Source: a virus
Lineage: Duplodnaviria; Heunggongvirae; Uroviricota; Caudoviricetes
Reading direction: 5' to 3' (one strand)
Virus record (IMG/VR): IMGVR_UViG_2778261203_000006
Coordinates: 1 to 14,909 of that record
DNA: 14,909 nt
A program made the position numbers and the translations under genes. Below are positions 1 to 14,909 of this stretch, piece after piece. Within the stretch, counting starts at the first letter, position 1; every line of letters starts with the position of its first letter. The notes beneath the pieces are model-generated. The model was not told where the DNA came from. It saw only the letters and a program-made list of their open reading frames with translations, and did not search any database.

Positions 1-88
1 CGTCTGCGTTTCTCCGGTCCTAAGACATCAATCATCTGCTCTCCAATGACTAGTCTAAAAACTAGTATTAAGACTATCACTTATTTAA

Positions 89-517
89 GTGATATTGGTT
101 GTCTGGAGATTCATGGGGCCAGTCTACCTGTCATGGGCTGTTAATCATTACCGTGATAACGCCATCGCCTACAAAGAGCAGCGCGATAAAGCCACGTACA
201 TCATCGCTGACATGCAGAAGCGTCAACGTGATGTAGCAGAACTCGACGCCAGATACACAAAGGAGCTTGCTGATGCTAACGCGACTATCGAAAGTATTCG
301 TGCTGATGTTTCTGCTGGTCGTAAGTGGCTGCGCGTCAAAGCAGTCTGTCCGGACATGCATAAAACCACCGCCGCCTCCGGCGTGGATGATGGCGCCAGC
401 CCCAGACTTACTGACACCGCTCAACGGGATTATTTCGTTCTCAGAGAGCGCATCGAAACCATAACTAACCAATTGAATGGCCTGCAAGAGTATGTGAGAT
501 CACAGTGTTCATATTAG
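89..517 (+). CDS. Rz-like inner-membrane spanin (i-spanin), N-terminus replaced or truncated; possibly non-functional
   Basis: Product from [13 protein letters not shown] onward matches, from memory, phage lambda Rz (periplasmic coiled-coil part, C-terminal ...QCSY-like end). GTG start directly after an in-frame TAA at 86-88. The first ~12 residues ([12 protein letters not shown]) are not a convincing transmembrane helix, unlike lambda Rz. Confidence 0.75.
273..464 (+). CDS. Rz1-like outer-membrane lipoprotein spanin (o-spanin), embedded in the +1 frame of Rz
   Basis: ATG at 273 with AGGAG at 261-265. Hydrophobic signal ending in lipobox-like LVVSGC, then a proline-rich stretch ([15 protein letters not shown]) and TPLNGIIS, as in lambda Rz1. 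Fully nested in the Rz gene in another frame, the classic embedded-spanin arrangement. Confidence 0.75.
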
Positions 518-555
518 AAAAGTCTTATCATAAGATTTTTGTATATGGATGCATT

Positions 556-930
556 ATGTCTCAATACGCGCGCGCCGCTTTAATTGCTTATTATTTGGTT
601 GCTGATAATTCAATATCCCCGCGTGATGCATGGGATGCTGCTGTCGCTGAGGTTACAGAAAGCGAATCGGCAAGAAAGAAGGGATGCCCAAGGGCAACGT
701 TTCTCGCTCTGGCGGATAGCGGTTATCTGAAGAATGTAAAACCACATCATGGGGAGAAAAAGATCGGTAAGTTGTACCAAAGGGCAATTGAAGTTGCGAA
801 TCTGATTCTTGATTTACCCGGAATTAGCAAAGCTGAGCTAGTTGATAAAACTTGCTATAAAGACAGGCAAGGGTCTTATGACATTGCTCTAACTCTCGCT
901 CAGCACGGATTACTCCAGCGTCCTCAATAA
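556..930 (+). CDS. Hypothetical protein (about 124 aa from ATG 556; a GTG at 505 would give 141 aa), family not recognised
   Basis: Open frame with phage-like codon usage directly downstream of Rz, followed by an intrinsic terminator. No motif I can name. Start codon choice uncertain. Confidence 0.5.
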   Translation: MSQYARAALIAYYLVADNSISPRDAWDAAVAEVTESESARKKGCPRATFLALADSGYLKNVKPHHGEKKIGKLYQRAIEVANLILDLPGISKAELVDKTCYKDRQGSYDIALTLAQHGLLQRPQ

Positions 931-947
931 GATATTAAGTGATTTAT

Positions 948-972
948 GGCCTCGCTTTTAGCGGGGCCTTTT
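948..972 (+). terminator. Rho-independent terminator
   Basis: GGCCTCGC-TTTTA-GCGGGGCC hairpin (7 of 8 pairs, one G-T wobble) followed by TTTT, 18 nt after the stop of the 556-930 gene. Confidence 0.6.
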
Positions 973-1374
973 CACATCTGAATTTCAACGCGCATCTCAG
1001 CGCACAATAACCACCTGACCATTTGGAATGAGTCGTTGAAGATACCTGCAGAGTAGACAGAAAAACCAGCAGAATAAACAACAGAGTAACGAATTAGCTA
1101 GCAGGAATGATTGGCCATCAACTACAGCAGTTCCGATTTGATGGCCACAAAAAAGTTAGTTCAGATCGGCAACGTAGTTGGTAGCTTCGAGATTAGTGAT
1201 ACTAAATTCTGACGCCAAAATACGAGCAAGCTCTTCTTTCGAGCTTGCTGTGCGGTTTTGATTAGACCAGGCGATCAAGTAAAAACCATTGCTCTTCGCA
1301 AGCATGATTTGTATTGCATTGATAGTTATGTAGTAACTGTCCAAGAATAAATTACCTCAGTGTTAGGAAAAGTA

Positions 1375-1926
1375 ATGGCACTCACCGACAAGCAAGAAAT
1401 GTTCTGTCGCGAGTACCTCATCGATTTAAACGCCACGCAAGCGGCTATTCGGGCGGGGTACAGCGCAAAGACAGCTAACCGTACCGCATCCGAAAACTTG
1501 TCAAAACCTGACATCAAGTTAAGAATCGCCGAACTGAAAGCGCAACGCAATGATCTTGTTGGTATTAATGCAGAATATGTACTTAATCGCCTTCTTGAAA
1601 TCGACCAGATGGATGTGCTCGACATTCTCCTGCAAAACGGTGAGCTAAAACCCATTAAAGACTGGCCTAAGGTATGGCGCACAACGCTATCAGGAATGGA
1701 TGTCGTGGAGATGGTATCCGCAGATAGCGCCGCACTTCTGAAGAAAATCAAATGGCCTGATAAGGTTAAAAACCTTGAGTTACTTGGGCGCCATGTTTCT
1801 GTTCAGGCGTTTAAAGACAACGTCAAAAATGAAGTGACTGGCGCTGATGGAGGACCAGTCAGAACAGAAATTACCAACTTAACGCCGGAGCAGGCTGCAG
1901 AGGCGTATAGAAAAATGATGGGCTAA
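1375..1926 (+). CDS. Terminase small subunit
   Basis: Product begins [30 protein letters not shown], the N-terminal pattern I associate with phage terminase small subunits. AGGAAA ribosome-binding site at 1365-1370. Stop lies 2 nt before the terminase large subunit start. The track ORF starts at GTG 1360; ATG 1375 preferred. Confidence 0.8.
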
Positions 1927-1928
1927 GT

Positions 1929-3551
1929 ATGCCGTTACCATTCCCCTTCGATTTTAAACATCCTGATTACCAGATGGTTTTTGAATGGCGGATGGAACGC
2001 CTACAGCGCATTCGCCAGAATCCTGAAATATTGCCTGCACTAAAACAGTTTTACCGAACCAATCCGGCTCAGTTCATCATCGACTGGGGCATGACAACGG
2101 ACCCGCGTAATATTGATTATGGCCTGCCGGTGACCATTCCGTTTTTACTCTTCCCTAAGCAGGAGGAGTGGATCCACTGGATTATGGAACGCTGGAGCAA
2201 TCGGGAGAATGGTATTACCGAAAAATCCCGTGAAATGGGGCTCAGTTGGACCGCGATCGGACTGGCATGCTCGCTTTGTCTCTTCAACAAAGAAATGGTT
2301 ATCGGTTTTGGCTCCCGTAAAGAGGAATACGTCGACAGCACTGGTGACCCGAAAGCATTGTTCTGGAAGGCGCGCAAGTTCGTGGAAACGCTACCTGTAG
2401 AGTTTCGCGGTTCGTGGAGTGAGAAGAAGCACGCGCCATATATGCGTGTTGAGTTTCCTGAAACTGGTGCCGTTATCAAAGGCGAGGCTGGCGATAATAT
2501 TGGTCGTGGTGACCGTACCACGCTTTATCTGGTTGATGAGGCTGCATTCCTTCAGCGTCCTCTGCTGATTGATGCGGCGTTGTCACAAACGACGCGTTGC
2601 CGTATCGACCTGAGTTCAGTTAACGGCATGGCTAACCCGTTCGCTCAGAAGCGTCATGGCGGGAAGATACCGGTATTCACATTCCACTGGCGGGATGATC
2701 CTCGCAAGGATGAAGAGTGGTATCGCAGGGAATGCGAGAAAATCGATAATCCGGTGGTGGTGGCACAGGAACTTGATCTGAACTACAGCGCATCAGCGGA
2801 AGGCGTTCTGATTCCATCCGAATGGGTACAGGCTGCCGTTGATGCGCATATCAAACTGGGTATCCAGCCAACAGGCAAACGACTTGGCGCGATGGATGTC
2901 GCCGACGAAGGCAGGGACAAAAATGCCTTTTCCACCCGTCATGGCTTCCTCCTGGAAAATGTGCGGGAATGGTCCGGTGTGGGCAGCGACATTTATCAGT
3001 CCGTCGAGAAGGTTTTCGGCTTTTGCGAACAGGACAACCTCGAAGAGTTTCGCTTTGACGAGGACGGGCTGGGCGCTGGCGTTCGCGGCGATGCACGCGC
3101 TATCAACGAACTGCGTAACGCTGCGCGTCGACCGTCAATACTTGCCACACCGTTTCGAGGTAGTGGCGCGGTATTTGATCCGGATGATGAAGCTGTTCGC
3201 GGGGACAACGGGCAAGCCGCACGTCTGAACAAGGACTTCTTCGCTAACGCCAAAGCCCAGAGCTGGTGGCGGTTACGTAAACTTTTTCAGAATACCTGGC
3301 GCGCCGTGGTTGAAGGTATGGCTTACAACCCGGACGAAATCATCTCAATCAGCAGTAGCATGGCACTCAAAGATAAACTCATCATCGAGCTTTCGCAGCC
3401 GACCTATTCCATTAATGGTGTGGGAAAAATCGTTATTGATAAACAGCCTGATGGAACCCGATCGCCAAACCTTGCCGACTCGGTGATGATCAACTATGCC
3501 CCAATGAATTCAGCCCTGAACATCTGGGAGCTGCTAGGGAGACAGGCCTGA
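1929..3551 (+). CDS. Terminase large subunit (ATPase/nuclease)
   Basis: 540 aa directly after the small subunit. Deviant Walker-A-like [11 protein letters not shown] and Walker-B-like [10 protein letters not shown]. Stop overlaps the next gene start (ATGA). Confidence 0.85.
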
Positions 3552-4312
3552 TGGCACGAAACAAACAAGCCCTGCGGCGAACTGCGCAGGCCACAGCTGA
3601 TGGTTATGAGAATTTTATTGCCCGCGTAGGGATACAGACGCCTAACCAGCACTCAGCATCGACCTACCGGGCTAACTTCACCAGCCGCAACCGCATGCTG
3701 GTGGAATGGTCCTATCGTTCGTCCTGGATCATCGGCGAAGCGGTCGACGCTATCCCGGACGATATGACCCGGAAAGGCATTCGCATCACTTCGGAGATTG
3801 ACGCCAAAGACCGTGGCACCCTGGAAGCGCAGCTGGATGAGTTGCAGATCTGGGATGCGCTGAACGACGTGCTGAAATGGTCGCGCCTCTACGGCGGCGC
3901 GGTCGGCTTCATCATGATCGAGGGGCAGGCACCAATGACCCCGCTGCGGCTCGAAACCATTGGAGAAGGCAAGTTTAAGGGCATTCTCCCGCTCGACCGC
4001 TGGATGATTAACCCGGTCCTGACCCGCCGCATTAAAGAGATGGGGCCGGATCTCGGCAAACCTGAGTTTTACGACGTGGTGACCACTGCCACGGGCATTC
4101 CAGCCTGGCGCATCCATCACAGTCGCCTGATTCGCTTCGACGGGGTGACGCTGCCATTCCAGCAGAAGATGACCGAAAACGAATGGGGAATGTCGGTTGT
4201 AGAGCGTATCTGGGATCGGCTTACTGCGTTCGACAGCGCCACTGTCGGCGCGGCGCAGCTGGTCTACAAAGCGCATTTGCGTACCTACAGCGTGGAGAAG
4301 CTACCCATGTAG
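3551..4312 (+). pseudogene. Portal protein, N-terminal fragment (253 aa; intact portals are much longer)
   Basis: Sits immediately after the terminase large subunit with start/stop overlap, the usual portal position. Length is about half of a normal portal. Similarity to portal families is from memory, not a search. Downstream head genes are missing. Confidence 0.55.
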
Positions 4313-4324
4313 TGAGGGATAAAG

Positions 4325-5448
4325 ATGCCGACTCTTGATGTAACAGATGTGCTTTTTGACCCCGATTTTTGCAACTTCAATTTGTGGGTAACACGCCGAG
4401 TGCAAACGGTTGATGAGGACGGGACGGGAACGGTCAGGGAATTGAGCTAAGTGATTTCAAAGTCACCTTTACGATCGACTGGTTCAACATCAGCAGCGCG
4501 TCCCGGGTAGGGACTATCAAAATTTATAACCTCTCGGCAGATACTGTGAACCGAATCACCGGGCAGGAATTTTCGAAAGTGCGTCTGATTGCCGGTTACG
4601 ACGGTGTCGCGCCAGAGGTGTCAGCAAGCGACGTAGGGACCGTGCGGGAAGTTGACGCGGCGGACGTGGGCCAGAGAGATGGCCGCAACTACGGACTGAT
4701 TTTCAGCGGTGAAATTCGCTACTCGGTCACAGGAAAAGACAGTCCGGTTGATACCTACGTCCTGATTCAGGCAGCAGATACTGATCTGGCTTTTGCCACC
4801 AGTATAACCTCACAGACGCTGGCTGCCGGTTACACGGTCGCTGATGTGAACCGTGCGCTGATGAAAGACTTCGAAGCCAAAGGCGCGACCGAAGGCCTGA
4901 CGCCTGAAATGCCTGCTACCGTATTCCCTCGAGGGCGGGTGCTGTTCGGCATGACACGGCATCTTATGGATAACGTGGCCGGACAATGTGGCGCAACATG
5001 GCAATTCGTGGACGGTCAACGCCAGATGGTGGCGAATAACGAATATGTTCATGAAGCGATTGTGCTCAACAGCGCTACCGGGCTTATTGGCATGCCGCAG
5101 CAGACTATCGGTAACGGCGTAAACGTCCGCGCGCTTATTAATCCGAACATCCGGGTTAACGGGCTCATTCAACTGGATCAGGCTTCAGTGTATCGTACCG
5201 CGTTGTCGAACAACGATATCGCGATGGCCGGTGGGCAGATCACCGACCAGAACACGGACGGAAATATTACGCTAAGCGGCACCACATCGCAGCCTGCCAG
5301 CATCGCAACGGATGGCGTTTATATTGTGCGTGGGATTATGTACACTGGCGACACAAGGGGGCAGGCGTGGTACATGGATATGATGTGTGAAGCACGTGGC
5401 GCGGCTGATCTACTTTCGTCCTCAGCGCAGCAAAGGATTTATTCATGA
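4325..5448 (+). pseudogene. Phage structural (tail/baseplate-region) gene, frameshifted or 5'-disrupted; family not recognised
   Basis: ATG 4325 with GAGGG ribosome-binding site opens a 41-codon frame that stops at 4448-4450. The long frame ending at 5448 is open from 4417 (after TGATGA at 4411-4416) but has no ATG until the GTG at 4546. The two frames overlap at 4417-4447, implying a -1 frameshift within one gene. Confidence 0.45.
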
Positions 5449-5792
5449 AGCGTATGAAGTTAGTTTTGACAATTTCGTTATTATTTTCTTGTTCAGCAGC
5501 TTTTGCTGATTTGCAATGCGGCGGATATCTACTTCATGCAGCTGATAACGGTTGGACAAAAATCAACGGTGAGCAGGTAACATCACAGAAGATTACGTTT
5601 CTTGGTAAGAAAGATGACTGGGACAACGTTAAAACTAACATGGGCCTGATGCCTTCTCGCGATGGCAACAATTACGGCTTTGAGTTTGTGAAGCGTAACG
5701 GAAAAGCTTTCCTGAACGTCCAGCTTCTGCAGAACAGCATGGATGCGCCTAAAATCATCGGATCATTCCCTTGTAAAAAGGCGTTACGCTAA
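5445..5792 (+). CDS. Small secreted protein (115 aa) with N-terminal signal peptide; candidate prophage cargo (moron)
   Basis: MKRMKLVLTISLLFSCSAAFA|DLQ: positively charged N-terminus, hydrophobic core, AxA cleavage motif (a weak lipobox LFSC is also possible). ATG overlaps the stop of the upstream gene (ATGA). Appears AT-richer by eye than flanking genes. Confidence 0.6.
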   Translation: MKRMKLVLTISLLFSCSAAFADLQCGGYLLHAADNGWTKINGEQVTSQKITFLGKKDDWDNVKTNMGLMPSRDGNNYGFEFVKRNGKAFLNVQLLQNSMDAPKIIGSFPCKKALR

Positions 5793-5829
5793 AGTTTGAT
5801 GTCAATCTTCCGAGATGAGCGCTTTAAGG

Positions 5830-5858
5830 TTGACGAGATATTGTTCAAAGTTCACAAT
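5830..5858 (+). promoter_or_regulatory. Candidate sigma70 promoter for the two-gene cassette
   Basis: TTGACG (5830-5835), 17-nt spacer, CACAAT (5853-5858), about 30 nt upstream of ATG 5888. The -10 element matches consensus at only 4 of 6 positions. Confidence 0.3.
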
Positions 5859-5887
5859 CACAATCCCTTTAGTAAGAGAAATAATCC

Positions 5888-6661
5888 ATGGCGGCAGGCA
5901 TCCCATTAGAAAAAGCGCAAAAATATATTGAACAATTCAATGCGCTTCTATTGGATAGGGAAAGTTTAGATCCCTTCACTGAAAAGAAAATTCGAGAGGA
6001 ACTTTCTGTCTCTCCAACGCCTGCTACCAACATTGCACTATCTTATCTGGATGCAATAACCGGAAAGATTGAAAGCGCGTTACGTTATCTCAGGATAAGC
6101 CTAGAAGTAAACGATGTAACGTTGGCAATGCACTATCATCACATTTTAATTAATACATTTAGCTATAATGAACTCAAGGATGTCTATGTCCCGCTGGCAA
6201 AGAAGTATCGGACAAAACTCTTTAGTCACAACGCATACAGTTGGGCGTACCGTTGCGGCGAGCGTGAACAGTTAAAATTTTATATGGAAGAGCACATTAA
6301 GCTTCTTTCTGAATCAGAAGGCAGGAGTAATGCTATGAAGCACAAAGAAGAACTCCTTGCAGAAATGGATAATTTCTATAGCGCCACACAGTGCTCGAAG
6401 GAACAGTTCCAGACCTTAGCATCCATAATCTGGGGCTTGCTAAGTGAATACAAGGCTACGACAGGTTTCGTTCAGCTTAGTGGAAGCGGTTGCTATGTTG
6501 TTGATATTAAAAATCTTGAGCCTAAAACTATTGCCAAAATGAACTTCGACTTGGCTGATAGAGTCTGCGCTGAATCTAAACTGGATGATTGTTCCCTGTT
6601 AGCTAGATTTACCTCTCCGCGTCAGTTGCATACGGGGGTGAGCTACCATGTCGGTAACTAG
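5888..6661 (+). CDS. Hypothetical 257-aa protein, upstream partner of a HEPN-like protein; unrecognised family
   Basis: ATG with AAGAGA ribosome-binding site 8 nt upstream. Appears AT-rich. Last codons overlap the start of the next gene. No catalytic or nucleotide-binding motif recognised by eye. Confidence 0.6.
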   Translation: MAAGIPLEKAQKYIEQFNALLLDRESLDPFTEKKIREELSVSPTPATNIALSYLDAITGKIESALRYLRISLEVNDVTLAMHYHHILINTFSYNELKDVYVPLAKKYRTKLFSHNAYSWAYRCGEREQLKFYMEEHIKLLSESEGRSNAMKHKEELLAEMDNFYSATQCSKEQFQTLASIIWGLLSEYKATTGFVQLSGSGCYVVDIKNLEPKTIAKMNFDLADRVCAESKLDDCSLLARFTSPRQLHTGVSYHVGN

Positions 6662-7043
6662 CAATCAGATTCTCGATACCGCTCGATTATGTCTGTCTGA
6701 AAATATTGAGAGTGGATTTCGAAGCGCTATCTCAAGGGCGTATTACAGTATGTTACATGAGTCTATTAGCTCACTTACTGCCATACCGCATTTTACCCAT
6801 GAGCATCACAAAAATACTGTGGGTTATATGTCAACGCCCTCAGAGTGCAAATCAGAGCCATACCCGACAAATACACTGAAATCCCTAGCTTTCGTACTTC
6901 GCCAGTGGCGGGATGCTAGAAATGAAGCTGACTATGATCTGACGAATGTGACTGTTTCGAAAGAGATGGGACAGGATGCAATCGAGGCTGCTGAACTCTA
7001 TTTTGAGCGCTGGGAACAGCTAAAGTCTGCTAGAGTTTCATGA
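6648..7043 (+). CDS. HEPN-like small protein (131 aa), candidate RNase toxin or effector
   Basis: Residues 29-37 SRAYYSMLH (codons 6732-6758) form an R-x6-H arrangement on a predicted helix, resembling the HEPN Rx4-6H motif. ATG lies inside the last codons of the upstream gene (ATGTCGGTAACTAG). A strong terminator follows. Confidence 0.55.
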   Translation: MSVTSNQILDTARLCLSENIESGFRSAISRAYYSMLHESISSLTAIPHFTHEHHKNTVGYMSTPSECKSEPYPTNTLKSLAFVLRQWRDARNEADYDLTNVTVSKEMGQDAIEAAELYFERWEQLKSARVS

Positions 7044-7060
7044 ATAAAATTAACGTTATC

Positions 7061-7084
7061 AAACCCGCTTCGGCGGGTTTTTTG
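7061..7084 (+). terminator. Rho-independent terminator closing the two-gene cassette
   Basis: AAACCCGC-TTCG-GCGGGTTT perfect 8-bp stem followed by a T-run, 18 nt after the stop at 7043. Confidence 0.75.
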
Positions 7085-7102
7085 CTTTCTGGAGCCTACT
7101 AA

Positions 7103-7855
7103 ATGGCAGTATCTGACCAGACCCGCAGCGGCGACCTTGCCGAAACATTCAAATCTGAACGGGAAACAACAAAGAACCAGATCCGTGTCGCCTTGCCTGG
7201 CATTATTCAGTCATTCGATCCTGATGCGGTGACGGCAGTTGTGCAGCCTGCTATCCGTTCGGTTGAAAAGGATAATGACGGCAACCGCATTACCAAAAAT
7301 TACCCATTGCTGGTGGATGTGCCAGTGGTATTCCCGCGCGGCGGAGGATGTACGCTAACGTTCCCAGTTAAAGCCGGTGATGAATGTTTGGTGATTTTTG
7401 CCGATCGTTGTATTGATTTCTGGTGGCAGAGTGGCGGGATACAGGAGTCGGTCGATGACAGAATGCATGATTTATCGGATGCGTTTTGTATTGTCGGTCC
7501 CCAGTCGCAGGCAAGGAAGATTAGCGGTATTAATACCAGTGCCACACAGTTGCGTAGTGATGACGGCAGCACCTATTTTGAGCTTAATCCTGATACCAGG
7601 AAAATTAAAATTGTCGCTCCAGGTGGTCTTGATGTGGTTGCCCCTCTGGCTGATTTTTCTGAGAAAGTAACCATTCATGGCCTGTTAACCTGGATGGGGG
7701 GCATGGTGGGGTCTGTGGTTTCTGGTGTGGCTTCAAAAATCACTGGTGCTGTTGAGTTTTTGGGGAGCGTGAAGGCTAATGGCAAGCCAATCGATGATAC
7801 ACACACTCATGGTGGTGTTCAGCGTGGTGGAAGCAGTACCGACGGGGTAAACTGA
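7103..7855 (+). CDS. Baseplate central spike/hub protein (gpV / Mu gp45-like)
   Basis: GGAG ribosome-binding site. 250 aa with a glycine-rich C-terminus (THTHGGVQRGGSSTDG) typical of spike proteins. First gene of a run of translationally coupled baseplate genes. Confidence 0.6.
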   Translation: MAVSDQTRSGDLAETFKSERETTKNQIRVALPGIIQSFDPDAVTAVVQPAIRSVEKDNDGNRITKNYPLLVDVPVVFPRGGGCTLTFPVKAGDECLVIFADRCIDFWWQSGGIQESVDDRMHDLSDAFCIVGPQSQARKISGINTSATQLRSDDGSTYFELNPDTRKIKIVAPGGLDVVAPLADFSEKVTIHGLLTWMGGMVGSVVSGVASKITGAVEFLGSVKANGKPIDDTHTHGGVQRGGSSTDGVN

Positions 7856-8208
7856 TGCGATACAGACGTGAAGACGCCGATGGCGATTACACCTTTGGCA
7901 GCGGTGATGACACCTGGCTGATTAACTCGCCTGAGGCCGTAGCGCAGGCTGTGAAAACGCGATTCGAATTGTGGTATGGGCAATGGTTTCTTGATACCAC
8001 AGAGGGAACACCGTGGATCCAGTCCGTGCTGGGCAGGCAAAAACCAGAAACTTACAACCTGGCGATCCGTAAGCGCATCCTCGAAACGCAGGGCGTTAAA
8101 TCAATCCTCTCTTTCAATACGACGGTGGATACCACGACCCGACGTGTCATGTTTTCCGCTGAAATCGACACTCTCTATGGAATAACGACTGTTACATCGG
8201 AGGCGTAA
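7855..8208 (+). CDS. Small baseplate protein (gpW / gp25 / Mu gp46-like position)
   Basis: 117 aa. TGATG overlap with the upstream gene and TAATG overlap with the downstream baseplate J gene. Assigned by position and size; family not confirmed. Confidence 0.5.
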   Translation: MRYRREDADGDYTFGSGDDTWLINSPEAVAQAVKTRFELWYGQWFLDTTEGTPWIQSVLGRQKPETYNLAIRKRILETQGVKSILSFNTTVDTTTRRVMFSAEIDTLYGITTVTSEA

Positions 8209-9407
8209 TGGCTCTGAACCTTGATTCTCTCGGTTTATCTGCAAAGGTAACCGCGGAGGGGATCAGTGCGCCTGATTATCAGACGATACTCAGCACCCTG
8301 ATTAGCTATTTTCAGCAGATTTATGGTAGTGATGCCTACCTCGAACCGGACAGTAAAGACGGTCAGATGGTGGCTCTGATGGCGCTGGCGATTCATGATG
8401 CCAATAATATGGCGATAACTGTCTACAACTGTTTTTCACCAGCAACCGGCTATGGGGCCGCACTGACCAGTAACGTGAAAATAAATGGTATTTCACGTAA
8501 AGGCGCGACGAATTCTACGGTTGATTTGCTTCTTACAGGAACTGCCGGAACAACCATCATTAATGGCAGCGTGAAAGACAGTAATAATGTGATATGGCGT
8601 TTGCCTGCTTCAGTGGTGGTCGGCGTGGATGGTACAGTGATGGTGACCGCAACATGTTCCGTCAGTGGTGCAGTGGCGGCGCTGGCTGGAACTATCACTG
8701 AAATTAATACGCCAACCCGTGGCTGGGTTTCGGTAACCAATCCTGCTGCAGCTACTGTGGGCACTCCGGCAGAAACTGACGCGGAGTTACGTATCCGCCA
8801 GTCGCAAAGTGTTGCATTGCCATCAATAACCCCATTTGAAGCACTGGATGGTGCTGTTTCTAATGTTACCGGTGTAACCCGCCACAAACTCTATGAAAAC
8901 GATACTGGTTCGGAGGACGGTAACGGGTTACCACCACACTCTGTTGCTGTAATTGTGGATGGCGGTGATGTGACGGATATTGCTCAGGCTATCAGAGGGA
9001 ATAAAGGTCAGGGGACAGCCACTCACGGTACAACATCCGTTACGGTTCCGGATAAATACGGCAATCCCCATGTAATCAAATTCTCGCGTTCCAGTGATGT
9101 ACCTGTTTATGCCCGGATTAAATTAAAAGTTTTTACGGGTTATACCTCACAGATAGGGCAGCAGATCCAGCAGGCTATTTCCGACTATATCAATAGTCTG
9201 ACGATTGGTGATTCAGTCCTTTTAAGTCGCATTTACTCACCGGCCAATCTTGGCGTGGTGAGTGGCGGGAATGCACGCTATTACGATATTCAGGAACTGA
9301 CGATTGGGAAATCCCCGGGGGCTTTGTCGTCATCAAACATTGATATCAGATACAACGAATCTGCGTCCTGTACCCCGGAAAATATCGTTATAACGGTGGA
9401 GTCATGA
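8208..9407 (+). CDS. Baseplate J-like protein
   Basis: 399 aa containing ETDAELRIRQ, which resembles the ESDxxLR motif of baseplate J proteins. Translationally coupled on both sides. Confidence 0.75.
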   Translation: MALNLDSLGLSAKVTAEGISAPDYQTILSTLISYFQQIYGSDAYLEPDSKDGQMVALMALAIHDANNMAITVYNCFSPATGYGAALTSNVKINGISRKGATNSTVDLLLTGTAGTTIINGSVKDSNNVIWRLPASVVVGVDGTVMVTATCSVSGAVAALAGTITEINTPTRGWVSVTNPAAATVGTPAETDAELRIRQSQSVALPSITPFEALDGAVSNVTGVTRHKLYENDTGSEDGNGLPPHSVAVIVDGGDVTDIAQAIRGNKGQGTATHGTTSVTVPDKYGNPHVIKFSRSSDVPVYARIKLKVFTGYTSQIGQQIQQAISDYINSLTIGDSVLLSRIYSPANLGVVSGGNARYYDIQELTIGKSPGALSSSNIDIRYNESASCTPENIVITVES

Positions 9408-10084
9408 GCAAATACACCGAACTAATCACGAACTACCACGCCACCAAACCTAAATTTCTTGCGCATGTTGATCTGATGACCCGGCCGCTTATTGATGTTG
9501 CGGCTGCCACCAGAGGGCTGATTACTGCATTTGATATTGACTCTGCGGTTGGTGTGCAACTTGACATTCTGGGATTGTGGATCGGACGTAGCCGTGTTGT
9601 CAGCCAGCCTATCTCAGGTGTCTATTTCAGCTGGGATACCGACGGGCTTGGATATGATCAGGGGGTATGGCAGGGGCCATATGATCCTGATTCTGGATAC
9701 ATGTATCTCAGCGATGAAACTTATCGTGTCATTCTTAAAGCGAAGATTGCGATTAATAACTGGGACGGACGGAATGATTCGCTTCCGGCAATTCTTGACG
9801 CGGCAACAGCAGGATCCGGGCTGCGAATGCAGATTGTCGATAACCAGGACATGACGATATCGGTCTGGGTCTTTCCTGATACTGATATTTCAGATGTATC
9901 GCGTGAGTTAATTGCTGCAATTAAACAGGGATATCTCACAGTAAAAGCCGCCGGGGTTTGGGCGGGTGGCATTGAAACACCTTCGGTGGAAACTCCATCG
10001 GAAGGTTCAAAATTTTTTGGTTTTGATATGGATAACGAATTCATCAGTGGTTTTGATGTAGGGGCATGGGGAGTATTACTCTGA
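9404..10084 (+). CDS. Tail/baseplate protein (P2 gpI / Mu gp48 / YmfQ-like position)
   Basis: 226 aa immediately between baseplate J and the tail-fibre gene. Start overlaps the upstream stop (ATGA); stop overlaps the tail-fibre start (TGATG). Confidence 0.6.
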   Translation: MSKYTELITNYHATKPKFLAHVDLMTRPLIDVAAATRGLITAFDIDSAVGVQLDILGLWIGRSRVVSQPISGVYFSWDTDGLGYDQGVWQGPYDPDSGYMYLSDETYRVILKAKIAINNWDGRNDSLPAILDAATAGSGLRMQIVDNQDMTISVWVFPDTDISDVSRELIAAIKQGYLTVKAAGVWAGGIETPSVETPSEGSKFFGFDMDNEFISGFDVGAWGVLL

Positions 10085-10731
10085 TGGCGAAAAATGACTT
10101 TAAAGCGTTTGCAACTGATCGGAATGCCAATGTTATGTCGCAGGAGGAATGGGAAGCGTTGCCTGCGCTTTTATCCGGATTTACAGCAGGGAAAGCATCC
10201 AGTGCGCAAGTCAATAAGGTTATTCGGCAGGCCAGCTTTATTGCTGCAGCTCTGGCCCAGTTTGTAAGTGACAAAACGCAACGGGATGTGCTTGATAATG
10301 GTGATCTGCCCGGTTTTGTTGAATTGCTGGGATCGGGGTTTGCTGTTGAATACCTGAGCCGCAAGAATCCGTTTGGTGATATCAAATCGGATGGCACGGT
10401 GAAAACAGCTCTCGAAAACCTTGGTTTAAGAGCAAGCGGGCAGTACACCGATAATTTGTTATTTACAGGTCCTGATGGTCTTAAGATTCAGGTGTTTCGC
10501 CGGACGCTCGCAAATTTGACTACTGTCGGTGTAGTAAATTCTGTGCCAGTGACTTTCCCTGTCCCGTTCCCTGTTAATTGCTGGGGCGTTTTTTCTACCA
10601 AATTAACATGGGTTCAGATAACTAACTCATGCGAGTGGGTAAGCAATACAGGATTTACCGCTCAGGTCATGATGAATATTGCTGTAAATACAAACACCTC
10701 AGACGCTATGTTTTTAGCTATAGGATATTAA
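10084..10731 (+). CDS. Tail fibre protein: constant N-terminal part (to about 10422) plus the currently expressed variable C-terminal part
   Basis: ATG 10084 with GGGGAG ribosome-binding site (track ORF starts at 10066). N-terminus MAKNDFKAFATDRNANVMSQEEWEALPALL...ASFIAAALAQFV is a tail-fibre-like N-terminus. A crossover site lies inside the gene at 10409-10434. Confidence 0.75.
   Translation: MAKNDFKAFATDRNANVMSQEEWEALPALLSGFTAGKASSAQVNKVIRQASFIAAALAQFVSDKTQRDVLDNGDLPGFVELLGSGFAVEYLSRKNPFGDIKSDGTVKTALENLGLRASGQYTDNLLFTGPDGLKIQVFRRTLANLTTVGVVNSVPVTFPVPFPVNCWGVFSTKLTWVQITNSCEWVSNTGFTAQVMMNIAVNTNTSDAMFLAIGY
10409..10434 (+). other. Crossover site (left) of the Pin-type invertible segment
   Basis: CTCTCGAAAACC-TT-GGTTTAAGAGCA: imperfect 12-2-12 palindrome with the AAACC-NN-GGTTT core typical of Hin/Gin/Cin/Pin sites. 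Lies inside the tail-fibre reading frame. Confidence 0.6.
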
Positions 10732-10732
10732 T

Positions 10733-11173
10733 ATGAATCGTTTTGTGTTCAGTCCATCTGAGTCCCGTTTTTATGCCATCGAGTGGCAGGTTGATTATGT
10801 TGATAATAATTGTTGGCCACATGATGCCATTAACGTTAGTGACAGCATTTATTATGAGTTTTCCGGCACTCCCCCTACAGGTAAGCAACTTATAACTTTA
10901 AATAACATGCCAGCATGGGGTGATATTCCTCCACCTACACGAGAAGAATTAATTGTCGTTGCTGATGTGGAGAAGCAAAAAAGAATAGATTTAGCCAATG
11001 ATTACATGAACGGTAAGCAATGGCCTGGTAAAGCAGCTATTGGTCGTCTGAAAGGTGAGGAACTGGCACAATATAATTTGTGGCTGGATTATCTGGACGC
11101 ACTGGAGCTGGTCGATACCGCCAGTGCGCCAGATATTGAATGGCCTACGCCTCCGGCAGTTCAGGCCAGATGA
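10733..11173 (+). CDS. Tail fibre assembly protein (chaperone for the currently expressed fibre)
   Basis: 146 aa directly after the fibre gene. C-terminus ...ASAPDIEWPTPPAVQAR resembles the conserved tail-fibre-assembly C-terminal motif. Confidence 0.75.
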   Translation: MNRFVFSPSESRFYAIEWQVDYVDNNCWPHDAINVSDSIYYEFSGTPPTGKQLITLNNMPAWGDIPPPTREELIVVADVEKQKRIDLANDYMNGKQWPGKAAIGRLKGEELAQYNLWLDYLDALELVDTASAPDIEWPTPPAVQAR

Positions 11174-11750
11174 CATCCGGCGCGGTGCTGGTATCTGTTG
11201 CCGTCACCGCGTCAATGTAATCCAGCACAGCGTTAAGGCTGGTTGTTTCTGCCTGCGTCAGTTTACGTCCGGCCTGCAATTTCAGCTGAATCAGACTGAT
11301 TGAAGCCATTGCAGTATCAATCAGTGACTGGCGCTGTGCTTCTGCTGCATCTACTGCGGCGCTATGCTGTGCTTCGGTATCCGTCACCCATTTCTCACCA
11401 TCCCATTTATCGTATGGCGTTAACGGGGCGATAGTGGTTGTATTATCAGGGTAATCACCCGGAGCTGTGATTTCTTTTGATTCTCCTGTTTCGGTGCTAA
11501 AGACGATTTCACCGCGATGGTCTGGCACATATTCCCATGAGTTAAAATCTACAGATCGGCAGATTGCATAACCAGCTTTGTATGTGCCAGGGGCATCTAA
11601 ACAGGAATATGCAGGGATACCGACACCAACGGCAAGATATTCAGTTGATGTGGAAATATATTCCCGTGTCTCACTGTCATAGTTATAAACGGTAATCTCT
11701 CCTGCCTTTGTGGCAATAAATTTATTATTTAAGATGGCGTTATACATCAT
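11145..11750 (-). CDS. Tail fibre assembly protein (chaperone for the alternative, inverted fibre)
   Basis: 201 aa on the - strand, convergent with and overlapping the 3' end of the + strand assembly gene by 29 bp. C-terminus ...TSTAPDVIWPELPEA has the same motif. Start overlaps the stop of the upstream - strand fibre segment. Confidence 0.75.
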   Translation of the reverse strand: MMYNAILNNKFIATKAGEITVYNYDSETREYISTSTEYLAVGVGIPAYSCLDAPGTYKAGYAICRSVDFNSWEYVPDHRGEIVFSTETGESKEITAPGDYPDNTTTIAPLTPYDKWDGEKWVTDTEAQHSAAVDAAEAQRQSLIDTAMASISLIQLKLQAGRKLTQAETTSLNAVLDYIDAVTATDTSTAPDVIWPELPEA

Positions 11751-12283
11751 GCAGCCCTCACAATGTAATTAAATGAAATATTACGTGGGCGTGTCTCTGC
11801 TGCACCGACAATACTGGTACTCAACCCCGTTGCCGTTCGTTTGTTATTTTTATTTCCTTCAATCAGACAGTTGTAATCATCATTACCAATTAACGAATTG
11901 GTGGCATCAATACTGTCCGGGGACAAGGCATTAGTTGTGGAACTTAAAGTCAGCATCTCGTCTGAACTTGGAAGATTTTTTAATGGTGTTTCATTGCGTG
12001 AAATACCCGCGTAAAAAAAGGACTCATGTCTGTGAGCTTCAAAAGAGTCATCCTGAAGACTTAACAAGGCTCGCCCCGCATCCACCCCGCGCCCATCATC
12101 CCATCCACGAATAAATTCACCGCGTAAATCAGGCAATTTATTTGTCGGGTAAGCCTTTGCCAGTTCCGGGTATTCTTCAGCAGAAAAAGCTGCTCCGTTG
12201 CATTTTAGCCAGCCTGTTGGCGGAGTGGCTGAGGGCCACGGAACAGGGACACCAACAGGTAATGCAGAGCCTTCTCCCAAACC
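11747..12283 (-). CDS. Alternative tail-fibre variable C-terminal segment (no own start; expressed only after inversion)
   Basis: - strand frame encoding ...GEGSALPVGVPVPWPSATPP...NISFNYIVRAA, which resembles the C-terminal receptor-binding region of lambda-like side tail fibres (PWPS motif, NYIVR ending). The frame continues in register through the right crossover site. Confidence 0.65.
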   Translation of the reverse strand, partial: GLGEGSALPVGVPVPWPSATPPTGWLKCNGAAFSAEEYPELAKAYPTNKLPDLRGEFIRGWDDGRGVDAGRALLSLQDDSFEAHRHESFFYAGISRNETPLKNLPSSDEMLTLSSTTNALSPDSIDATNSLIGNDDYNCLIEGNKNNKRTATGLSTSIVGAAETRPRNISFNYIVRAA

Positions 12284-12297
12284 AACATTTATGAAAA
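12272..12297 (+). other. Crossover site (right) of the Pin-type invertible segment
   Basis: TTCTCCCAAACC-AA-CATTTATGAAAA. The inner arm matches the left site at 9 of 12 positions when inverted; the central dinucleotide is AA on the + strand, i.e. TT on the - strand, the same as the left site in inverted orientation. Confidence 0.55.
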
Positions 12298-12351
12298 TGC
12301 AGAAATAACGAGCAAATGGCATCATTCCTGCTTTTGTCAGGGAGATCTACC

Positions 12352-12906
12352 ATGCTTATTGGCTATGTACGTGTGTCAACAAATGACCAGAACACAGATC
12401 TACAACGTAATGCGCTGAACTGTGCAGGATGCGAGCTGATTTTTGAAGACAAGATAAGCGGTACAAAGTCCGAAAGGCCGGGACTGAAAAAACTGCTCAG
12501 GACATTATCGGCAGGTGACACTCTGGTTGTCTGGAAACTGGATCGGCTGGGGCGCAGTATGCGGCATCTTGTCGTGCTGGTGGAGGAGTTGCGCGAACGA
12601 GGCATCAACTTTCGTAGTCTGACGGATTCAATTGATACCAGCACACCAATGGGACGCTTTTTCTTTCATGTGATGGGTGCCCTGGCTGAAATGGAGCGTG
12701 AACTGATTGTTGAACGAACAAAAGCTGGACTGGAAGCTGCTCGCGCACAGGGACGAATTGGTGGACGTCGCCCCAAACTTACACCAGAACAATGGGAGCA
12801 GGCCGGACGATTAATTGCAGCAGGAATTCCTCGCCAGAAGGTAGCGATCATCTATGATATTGGTGTATCGACTTTGTATAAGAGGTTTCCAGCCAGGATT
12901 ATATAA
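12352..12906 (+). CDS. pin: Serine-recombinase DNA invertase (Hin/Gin/Cin/Pin family)
   Basis: Product MLIGYVRVSTNDQNTDLQ...: N-terminal resolvase/invertase catalytic domain with the active-site serine in YVRVSTNDQ, and a C-terminal helix-turn-helix. 184 aa from ATG 12352 (track ORF starts earlier at 12316). Confidence 0.9.
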   Translation: MLIGYVRVSTNDQNTDLQRNALNCAGCELIFEDKISGTKSERPGLKKLLRTLSAGDTLVVWKLDRLGRSMRHLVVLVEELRERGINFRSLTDSIDTSTPMGRFFFHVMGALAEMERELIVERTKAGLEAARAQGRIGGRRPKLTPEQWEQAGRLIAAGIPRQKVAIIYDIGVSTLYKRFPARII

Positions 12907-12944
12907 AACCGCAGACACGCCGTATGCAAGAACGTGCTGCGGTT
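12907..12944 (+). other. Stable hairpin immediately downstream of pin (not a canonical intrinsic terminator: no T-run)
   Basis: AACCGCAG ... CTGCGGTT perfect 8-bp inverted repeat, extendable to about 12 bp with one bulge, starting 1 nt after the pin stop. Confidence 0.35.
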
Positions 12945-13742
12945 GGCTGGTGAACTTTCGATAGTGCGAGTATTGAATGATTTTCAGCCGTTGCCGATTT
13001 TACTATGTTTTCAGTAGAACACTTAGACAAAACTGAGGCGCACAAAGCTTTGCACTGGATTGCAAGACTTTGTGCTATTCGATAGTTTAAGGTCGCTCAC
13101 TCTACCTTTTCATCAAGCCAGTCCGCCCACCACAGCATCATTTCTCTGCGCTTAATGTAGCGGATGCCTCACTATCACATAGTGATGGTTCATTACTGCT
13201 TTGTAGAATGGATAGAGAACTGAGGATAAAAAGATATCCCAAAACCCCAAAATCTCATCTTTAGGATTTGCAGAAAGGGAGGCGTGAACAGATACCTGCG
13301 CATGAAGACGGAACTAGTCCAGATGTGATATTTGTGGTGATCACATACATCATCAACGATGCTCGTTATGGTGAGTTTGATGACTACCCGCTGAAGTGAA
13401 AATAGTGTTGTGTACCAAATTGCGTACCAAACTAAAATCACAAATCATGAAACCCTTGTTCATGGCGGTTCTCAGGGGTATTGCGCGTAATCGTGAAACA
13501 AAAAGGTAGATTGTTGCTTACCGTCATTCATCATTAGGTTAAATCCGTTATTTCTGCTGTCTGCCAGAGTATCAAATATCACCGTGCTAATCAGCTTTAG
13601 CGCCACAATTTGGCAGCGAGTGGCAACAGATCATGTCAGATAAAAATGAGAGGGTAGTCACATTTTCTTGCACTTTATTCCAGCCAGTTCATAAGTATTT
13701 CCGTAAAAAGAACAGCTATTTGAAACTCCTGAGGGTTTGCTG

Positions 13743-14909
13743 TTGAAACGCCGTCTTATTATTGCTGCTTCTTTGTTCGTTTTTAACTTATCGTCTGGTT
13801 TTGCGGCGGAAAACATTCCTTTTTCACCTCAGTCTCCAGAGATTCATGCCGGGTCCTGGGTATTGATGGATTACACCACCGGTCAGATCCTCACCGCGGG
13901 AAATGAGCATCAACAGCGCAATCCCGCCAGCCTGACAAAGCTGATGACGGGTTATGTCGTGGATCGCGCTATCGATAGTCATCGCATTACGCCAGACGAT
14001 ATTGTCACCGTGGGGCGCGATGCGTGGGCGAAAGATAATCCGGTGTTTGTCGGTTCTTCACTGATGTTTTTGAAAGAGGGCGATCGCGTATCGGTACGTG
14101 ATTTAAGCCGTGGTTTAATTGTGGATTCCGGAAATGACGCTTGTGTTGCACTGGCTGACTATATTGCCGGTGGGCAACGGCAGTTTGTTGAAATGATGAA
14201 CAACTATGCCGAGAAGCTGCATCTCAAGGATACGCATTTTGAAACAGTGCATGGCCTGGATGCACCTGGCCAGCATAGCTCGGCTTATGATTTAGCTGTA
14301 CTTTCTCGCGCTATCATCCACGGCGAGCCCGAGTTTTATCATATGTACAGTGAGAAAAGTCTCACCTGGAACGGTATCACCCAGCAAAACCGTAACGGGT
14401 TGTTGTGGGATAAAACCATGAATGTTGACGGTCTGAAAACGGGTCATACTTCTGGTGCCGGGTTTAATCTCATTGCTTCGGCTGTAGATGGGCAGCGTCG
14501 TCTCATTGCAGTGGTAATGGGGGCTGACAGTGCAAAAGGTCGTGAGGAAGAGGCAAGAAAATTACTACGTTGGGGGCAACAAAACTTTACTACGGTGCAA
14601 ATTTTGCACCGTGGGAAAAAGGTCGGAACGGAACGCATCTGGTATGGCGATAAAGAAAATATCGACCTGGGAACGGAACAAGAGTTCTGGATGGTGCTAC
14701 CGAAAGCCGAAATTCCACATATCAAAGCCAAATATACCCTTGATGGTAAAGAACTCACCGCGCCAATTAGCGCCCATCAGCGGGTAGGGGAAATTGAACT
14801 TTACGACCGTGATAAACAGGTGGCGCACTGGCCGCTGGTTACCCTGGAATCTGTCGGGGAAGGCGGCATGTTTTCCCGCCTGAGTGATTATTTCCACCAT
14901 AAGGCCTGA
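13743..14909 (+). CDS. dacD: D-alanyl-D-alanine carboxypeptidase (penicillin-binding protein 6b)
   Basis: Product has a signal peptide, the SxxK active-site motif (ASLTK) and SGN (DSGNDAC), and matches my memory of E. coli DacD. Likely TTG start at 13743 (MKRRLII..., 388 aa) with GAGGG 8 nt upstream; the track ORF starts at TTG 13737. Confidence 0.88.
   Translation: MKRRLIIAASLFVFNLSSGFAAENIPFSPQSPEIHAGSWVLMDYTTGQILTAGNEHQQRNPASLTKLMTGYVVDRAIDSHRITPDDIVTVGRDAWAKDNPVFVGSSLMFLKEGDRVSVRDLSRGLIVDSGNDACVALADYIAGGQRQFVEMMNNYAEKLHLKDTHFETVHGLDAPGQHSSAYDLAVLSRAIIHGEPEFYHMYSEKSLTWNGITQQNRNGLLWDKTMNVDGLKTGHTSGAGFNLIASAVDGQRRLIAVVMGADSAKGREEEARKLLRWGQQNFTTVQILHRGKKVGTERIWYGDKENIDLGTEQEFWMVLPKAEIPHIKAKYTLDGKELTAPISAHQRVGEIELYDRDKQVAHWPLVTLESVGEGGMFSRLSDYFHHKA

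Follow-up and report, generated by a model that had tools for sequence, protein, structure and literature searches.

The subject of this work is a pair of overlapping genes, called A and B below, in a 14,909-nt stretch of viral DNA (IMG/VR record IMGVR_UViG_2778261203_000006, positions 1 to 14,909); by the window we mean the whole of that stretch. Gene A (5888..6661, + strand, 257 aa; phrog_17809) is followed by gene B (6648..7043, + strand, 131 aa; phrog_5176), and the two open reading frames (ORFs) overlap by 14 nt, with the ATG of B lying within the final codons of A. An initial annotation, made from the letters of this DNA, had drawn the two ORFs exactly so, and had described them as a self-contained cassette with a HEPN-like protein, inserted as cargo in a baseplate operon. 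Judged by comparison with related sequences, this cassette architecture is now better supported than a single sequence allowed. As to function, we infer, with good motivation, that the pair would be a HEPN-based toxin-antitoxin (TA) or abortive-infection module with an unprecedented partner, a tetratricopeptide repeat (TPR) protein.

The cassette and its signals

The cassette lies between two backbone genes of the phage. On the left is a gene for a phage protein of the STY1065/STY2022 family (5445..5792, + strand; phrog_3443), and on the right is the gene of the baseplate central spike (7103..7855, + strand; PF18352 N-domain and Apex motif). When the window is aligned to twelve related loci, homology ends at 5779-5781, that is 12-14 nt before the stop codon of the STY1065-family gene, and resumes at 7059-7071. 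The cargo block so delimited (5780..7058, + strand, GC 42%) is exchangeable, being 99.9-100% identical between prophages whose left flanks are 89.6-97.7% identical. Strain RIVM_C029670 illustrates the point: its cassette differs from that of the window at 1 of 1279 nt, while identity falls to 89.6% in the left flank and to 97.7% in the right. A near-identical cassette on diverged flanks means that the block was exchanged recently between diverged backbones.

That the block is richer in AT than its surroundings had been judged by eye, and computation bears this out. The GC content is 42.0% for 5793-7060, against 53.0% for 1929-5792 and 49.1% for 7103-10084, and 0.8% of equal-sized windows have a GC content as low as that of the cassette block. 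It has to be added that the upstream STY1065-family gene (5445-5792), at 42.5% GC, is as AT-rich as the cassette.

The right edge of the variable slot is formed by an intrinsic terminator (7061..7086, + strand; AAACCCGC-UUCG-GCGGGUUU followed by a U-run). Its hairpin at 7061-7080, with an 8-bp stem, a UUCG loop and a T-run, has a folding energy of -14.2 kcal/mol and is the top + strand terminator-like site of the window in a terminator scan. A scan of the window with Rfam returned no RNA family. The strength of the terminator was described correctly, but it is not private to the pair, as the next section shows.

The candidate sigma-70-like promoter (5830..5858, + strand; TTGACG-17-CACAAT), whose -10 element ends 29 nt before the start of A, is a different case. 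The sequence is present as it had been proposed, but its score of 9/12 is at chance level when taken alone: the scan found 19 such sites against 19.8 expected from shuffled sequence. The support for it is comparative. The arrangement TTGAC(G/T)-17/18-(C/T)A(C/G)AAT stands 28-29 nt upstream of the start of A in four contexts on three phage backbones; an Aeromonas Mu-like locus has hexamers identical to those of the window, Enterobacter and Klebsiella phage loci have TTGACT-18-TAGAAT, and the spacers between the hexamers have diverged across the backbones.

The overlap of the two genes had been taken as a hint of translational coupling, and this suggestion has gained ground. At the junction (6630..6661, + strand) a Shine-Dalgarno-like (SD-like) run, GGGGGTGAG, and the ATG of B are both embedded in the last codons of A, with the run 6-14 nt upstream of that ATG. 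All nine homologous loci that were compared have a G-rich run 5-12 nt before the start of B and an A/B overlap of 0-20 nt. Because both traits recur at every locus, coupling is a conserved feature of the pair, and on this comparative evidence A and B are translationally coupled.

Taken together, the sequence comparisons identify 5780-7086 as a moron, an autonomous cargo unit that runs from promoter to terminator, with the STY1065-family gene on its left and the baseplate spike gene on its right. Between genes of the late operon it has a strong terminator and a candidate promoter that is weak alone; its composition is shifted, and it is present in some related phages and absent from others.

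A slot for exchangeable cargo

We surveyed 5426 complete E. coli genomes and found matches to the flanks of the slot in 318 of them. The cassette is present in 27 of these 318 slot-bearing genomes, and at least eight alternative cargos occupy the same slot in other prophages. They comprise a 190-aa protein with a YafO-family toxin, a DUF2335 protein, a DUF4282 protein, a 121-aa protein, a 170-aa protein, a pair of 243 and 142 aa, the 77-aa and 138-aa genes of SEN34 itself and, in Yersinia phage YP3, a 266-aa gene. In the YafO cargo (L004 1900-2890; NZ_CP195942) the 190-aa hypothetical protein comes first and the YafO-family toxin second, and the usual small YafN antitoxin is unannotated there. 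The sharp breakpoints and the variety of cargos agree with the initial annotation, in which the pair was cargo in a variable slot of the baseplate operon. Indeed this is a variable locus between core genes with known TA cargo, which is what defines a hotspot. In the literature that we searched, the slot in the baseplate operon of Brunovirus-like prophages is not described as one.

The terminator is part of the conserved right edge of the slot and also follows the YafO, DUF2335 and 243+142 cargos. A hairpin of the form ACCCGC(C)-loop-(G)GCGGGT with a T-run is likewise found 3' of B homologues on Mu-like and Klebsiella phage backbones; equivalents of the shared terminator were located at loci L004, L005, L006, L010, L014, L017, L022 and L028. 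The shared terminator may serve as a recombination anchor for the exchange of cargo. It stands amid the genes of a late operon, which implies that transcription during lytic growth reads through it or is antiterminated.

The slot also bears on another alternative, that both proteins belong to the virion structure or to baseplate assembly. Their position between baseplate hub and spike is the only point that speaks for it. Scans with Pfam, NCBIfam and PHROGs gave no match of either protein to a structural family. Most relatives of this phage type have neither protein, and the slot is otherwise filled by non-homologous genes, a TA toxin among them. Given this variability a structural role is very unlikely.

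Pairing, mobility and alleles

An A-like gene of 243-262 aa stands immediately 5' of a B-like gene of 126-142 aa at all nine loci, which belong to at least four backbones. These are Brunovirus-like prophages of E. coli, Salmonella and Enterobacter; an Aeromonas Mu-like prophage, where the pair lies between the tape measure gene and the DNA-circulation gene; a metagenomic Mu-like element; Klebsiella phage ST405-OXA48phi1.3, where it is upstream of the tape measure gene; a Vibrio P2-like phage, where it has the late control B/portal genes on one side and replication gene A on the other; and Yersinia pekkanenii, where it is beside a Fic protein and Ogr/Delta genes. The gpA-gpQ interval is a defence hotspot of P2 (Rousset et al. 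2022), and the Vibrio pair sits within a hotspot of this gpA-gpQ type.

Pairwise identities of A and of B correlate strongly (r = 0.96; 16 pairs, the comparisons not being phylogenetically independent), and A diverges faster than B in 95% of these same comparisons, to which the same limit applies. On this evidence of co-occurrence and correlated divergence, A and B are always inherited together.

One slot holds several versions of the pair. The 243+142-aa cargo is a distant homologue (hhalign gives 97% probability and E 7e-11 for B, and E 4.4e-5 over 217 columns for A), and a third allele in the same slot encodes proteins of 257 and 126 aa, its B being 39% identical. The three alleles occur in 27, 33 and 2 complete E. 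coli genomes. Each exact protein that was checked is found on 678 to >1000 public contigs of Escherichia, Salmonella, Enterobacter and Citrobacter, all annotated as hypothetical; for both exact proteins of the window the count is >1000 contigs each.

The annotation of B is poor. The RefSeq pipeline PGAP leaves it unannotated in 24 of the 27 complete E. coli carriers (for example at L001 10263-10703), so that defence-mining pipelines which start from proteins would miss the effector gene. In Klebsiella phage MK416008 (L028 3232-4396) the deposited start of A is 48 nt late, which removes the conserved MAAGIP N-terminus, and the 131-aa HEPN frame, although intact, is entered as two separate small ORFs. 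We considered whether B of this phage is a pseudogene, which would have been a case of toxin inactivation, and dropped the idea, since translation shows the 131-aa frame to be open.

Protein B is a HEPN domain of the AF0298 type

The 131-aa protein had been called HEPN-like from the sequence SRAYYSMLH, and the family assignment has been strengthened by profile, Pfam and fold matches. Taken by itself, B of the window matches nothing in Pfam, NCBIfam or PADLOC. A profile of the B family matches two HEPN proteins of solved structure, 9xbd with E 2.6e-6 (4.9e-12 with a broader profile) and 2hsb, the structure of AF0298, with E 4.3e-7; PF05168 matches 7 of 17 relatives of B, the best with E 5e-6, and several sources label relatives of B as UPF0332 or HEPN. 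The AlphaFold2 (AF2) model of B has a pLDDT of 88.6 and consists of helices only. Its top match in Foldseek is again 2hsb, with a probability of 1.00 and TM 0.57-0.59, and further matches include HepT, the HEPN domain of sacsin, HEPN-MNT structures, 4nqf and 8xeh; the E-values of these Foldseek matches are weak (>=0.03). Judged from these profiles and the model, B is an AF0298/UPF0332-type HEPN-T domain at the periphery of PF05168. Its clade is narrow, phage-borne and mostly enterobacterial, with additional members in Aeromonas and in one Vibrio phage.

The active site had been read differently, and in this respect the initial annotation has to be revised. It had likened R30-x6-H37 to the Rx4-6H motif of HEPN RNases. 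These residues lie in helix 2, within the family signature SRAYYxxxH, and the canonical HEPN site of B is R88-D-A-R91-N-E-A-D95-Y96, which contains no histidine. H37 is a tyrosine in 9xbd and R30 is a threonine in AF0298. The conservation that had been expected of R30 and H37 is nonetheless there: R30 never varies among relatives as distant as 24% identity, and conservation of H37 is 90% or higher. The residues invariant over this range are E21, R25, I28, S29, R30, Y32, Y33, H54, R91, D95 and Y96.

In HEPN-T domains of the AF0298 type an aspartate replaces the histidine, and a second conserved histidine, located in the insert after helix 2, could form an alternative active site (Anantharaman et al. 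2013). In B the counterpart of this alternative histidine is H54, which would compensate for the missing one. The same study groups AbiV with AF0298, noting that the histidine of the motif is typically absent and the alternative one conserved (Anantharaman et al. 2013). AbiV is a toxic HEPN RNase that degrades rRNA in an abortive-infection TA system, and AF0298 is among its closest structural homologues. Since AbiV is grouped with AF0298 and is active, this branch of HEPN domains can be catalytically active.

Protein A is probably a TPR-containing binder

The initial annotation recognised no motif in the 257-aa protein. Its AF2 model (pLDDT 91.5) contains ten helices followed by a beta-beta-alpha-beta unit, and the layout is an N-terminal TPR array at about residues 7-140 and a C-terminal alpha/beta domain at 146-245. 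The N-terminal part has tandem helix-turn-helix repeats that match TPR models, and the fold matches of A include the TPR chaperones IpgC, PcrH and AcrH. For the C-terminal domain (146-245) no fold match was found, and no Pfam, NCBIfam or PADLOC model matched A.

An exhaustive hidden Markov model (HMM) search of 1.84 billion representatives gave about 125 clusters at 50% identity for the A family, nearly all of 245-270 aa and without fusions. In the alignment of 64 members no column is invariant, which argues against A being an enzyme and especially against an MNT-like nucleotidyltransferase, where MNT stands for minimal nucleotidyltransferase. We did consider a nucleotidyltransferase because of the stretch GSGCYVVDI, and rejected it: the topology there is that of a beta-hairpin, the wider family does not keep D206, and nothing matched a nucleotidyltransferase. 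Judged from the alignment, the probable role of A is binding, not catalysis. Members of the close subfamily share three strongly conserved regions, namely the N-terminus (MAAGIP.EK), the linker (HIKLLSE.EGR..KHK.ELL) and the C-terminal tail (RF.SPR.LHTGVSY), and the last few codons of this tail double as the ribosome-binding site of B.

A partner with these properties invites a reading in which B is inactive by default and non-toxic alone, and A activates or recruits it when the TPR domain binds a phage protein, so that A would be required for defence and not for immunity. TPR domains do act as sensors in other bacterial immune proteins, for example STAND/TPR proteins, and it would suit such a sensor that A evolves faster than B and that it has no DNA-binding antitoxin domain. 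Yet a large partner first and a small effector second, overlapping and coupled, is the classic layout of antitoxin and toxin, and the YafO toxin pair in the same slot has this layout too. In our opinion activation of B by A is therefore unlikely, though of the alternatives it is the one that we would take most seriously.

Relation to known systems

According to the initial annotation the pair could be placed in no named family. This holds in so far as no defence or TA family claims the pair, but B itself can be placed in HEPN-T/UPF0332. With the AF0298/UPF0332-type proteins (PF05168; 2hsb, 9xbd) B shares the fold, a helix 2 of the form (S/T)xAYYAxxH, the histidine after helix 2 and R-x3-D-Y. 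It differs from them in that the window protein reaches no Pfam or NCBIfam model and in that its partner is not a nucleotidyltransferase.

The last point separates the pair also from the HEPN-MNT systems (Shewanella HepT/MntA; 5yep, 6m6w). Here too a small HEPN gene lies downstream of its partner gene and overlaps it, a tyrosine stands beside the catalytic motif, and HepT structures are among the fold matches of B. However, the HEPN-MNT motif is Rx4HxY whereas that of B is R-x3-D-Y, and the partner in the cassette is a 257-aa TPR protein with neither the fold nor the motif of a nucleotidyltransferase and with no invariant residue. When A was examined specifically for a minimal nucleotidyltransferase (pol-beta fold, GS...DxD), none was found. 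Because A lacks this fold, neutralisation of B by AMPylation is not expected.

AbiV of Lactococcus is comparable in that its effector is a HEPN RNase with AF0298 among its nearest structural neighbours; the system is TA-like, and AbiV is anti-phage. Its antitoxin is an RNA, whereas the partner in the cassette is a conserved protein, and AbiV models did not match B in PADLOC at E up to 1 or in Pfam at E up to 0.1-1. DefensePredictor DS-28 of E. coli likewise consists of two genes, for a small HEPN protein and a 252-aa partner, but with the opposite gene order and with a canonical RNxxxH motif. DS-28 was considered as the identity of the pair and rejected, since neither protein shows detectable homology to it (hhalign probability 0.1%).

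No validated DefensePredictor system matched the pair, and the accessions of the family to which the pair belongs were not found in those parts of the DefensePredictor supplementary tables that were covered. In PHROGs, A and B fall only in families of unknown function. The literature searched (UPF0332, COG1895, HEPN with TPR), its supplementary tables covered in part, holds no description of the pair. As to its genomic setting, the cassette resembles phage morons and the cargo of the P2 gpA-gpQ hotspot (Rousset et al. 2022) in having its own signals, a deviant composition, swapped cargos, and TA or defence genes, and it differs from the P2 case in that the slot is in the baseplate operon of Brunovirus-like prophages.

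The host prophage

Sequence comparison identifies the window as an E. coli prophage of the Salmonella phage SEN34 (Brunovirus) type. The genes around the cassette encode the baseplate hub, the STY1065/STY2022-family protein, the central spike, the sheath initiator, baseplate J and wedge-1. The prophage is defective: what occupies 1375-12475 in the window corresponds to 22.4 kb in intact relatives. A fragment of the portal gene (3551-4312, covering positions 6-205 of the 357 of Phage_portal_3) is joined to a 5'-truncated baseplate hub gene (4546-5448), and, by comparison with intact relatives, genes for head, sheath, tube and tape measure amounting to about 11 kb are gone. Among the complete E. 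coli genomes in our collection no other instance of the deleted arrangement at 3551-5448 was found. Prophages from which about 11 kb of structural genes have been deleted still keep the cassette.

The chromosomal right flank is dacD (13737-14909; NCBIfam DacD, E 5.6e-255). In strain PK8276 (NZ_CP080146) an otherwise identical cassette lies within a remnant beside tRNA-Thr/proA, so this type of prophage has more than one integration site. Downstream of that remnant (L001 16142-20101) are genes for a DUF262 protein and for a retron Ec67-family reverse transcriptase/endonuclease, which places the cassette near other defence-type genes in this strain. Elsewhere in the window, 10066-12906 is a switching module for tail-fibre host range: one set of fibre and assembly genes lies on the + strand, opposed by a second, inverted set on the - strand (11145-12325) with a serine invertase (12316-12906) alongside. 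The crossover sites of this module were not convincingly located in a quick search for repeats.

Proposed function

The reading that we prefer, and to which we would give an even chance, is that B is a HEPN RNase effector or toxin restrained by A as a TPR antitoxin and sensor, the two forming a TA-style anti-phage module; AbiV provides the precedent. B would be a metal-independent RNase with a predicted site of R91, D95 and H54, helped by E21, R25 and R30, and this site would stand in for the classical Rx4-6H. A would be a non-enzymatic protein, translated from the shared mRNA shortly ahead of B; by binding B it would hold B inactive, and through its TPR surface, which evolves fast, it would also sense a trigger supplied by an infecting phage. 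Expression in the lysogen would start at the cassette's own promoter. On superinfection, or if A were lost, B would be set free to cleave RNA, with the result that the cell is arrested and the infection aborted, or that cells losing the element are killed. Different alleles in the same slot would then correspond to different specificities.

Several points count against this reading. The canonical Rx4-6H at the junction of helices 3 and 4 was looked for in B and is not there, and some HEPN-T domains are non-catalytic binders. A is unusually large for a type II antitoxin and, as said above, lacks the DNA-binding domain usual in these. PADLOC-DB v2.0.0 has zero families for A and B. Furthermore, on three backbones the pair sits inside tail or baseplate gene clusters, which leaves room for a role in the biology of the phage itself.

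Some of these points can be assembled into a coherent alternative, in which B is a catalytically inactive HEPN domain that binds RNA or nucleotides, and the pair serves the programme of the phage, either in regulating late or tail genes or with A as a TPR chaperone for a tail component. The missing canonical histidine, the existence of inactive HEPN domains (Anantharaman et al. 2013), the location within tail modules on three backbones and the chaperones IpgC, PcrH and AcrH among the fold matches of A would all fit. But the great majority of slot-bearing E. coli prophages, all except the 27 of 318, carry unrelated cargo instead of the pair, the cassette brings a promoter and a terminator of its own, and the pair is found outside tail modules on P2-like and Yersinia elements. 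The eleven invariant residues of B, moreover, match the proposed alternative active site. We consider a service role with an inactive HEPN domain improbable.

A plain addiction module is hardly more probable in our opinion. According to this alternative, the pair stabilises the prophage or its remnant by post-segregational killing and has no anti-phage activity. It would explain why the cassette is kept in heavily deleted prophages, and it agrees with the TA-like architecture and with the YafO TA genes in the same slot. However, it does not account well for the location in recognised phage defence hotspots, and the allelic diversification at one slot together with rapid horizontal exchange fits conflict-driven selection better.

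Returning to the anti-phage module, it is possible to go one step further, although we hold this wider claim at somewhat below even chances. The pair may represent an undescribed, phage-borne family of abortive-infection systems, consisting of an AF0298-type HEPN RNase with an R...D/H site and a TPR antitoxin-sensor, whose alleles sense different phage proteins and whose cartridge spreads across tail-module and P2-type hotspots of unrelated temperate phages.

Implications

If the proposed function is true, the pair would add a new class of partner to HEPN toxin systems, with a TPR protein where other systems have an MNT nucleotidyltransferase or an RNA antitoxin. The AF0298/UPF0332 branch of HEPN domains, whose alternative active site is so far a prediction only, would at the same time gain its first functional handle. 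Finally, the baseplate operon of Brunovirus-like prophages would be a new cargo hotspot, with the same cartridge in Mu-like and P2-like phages.

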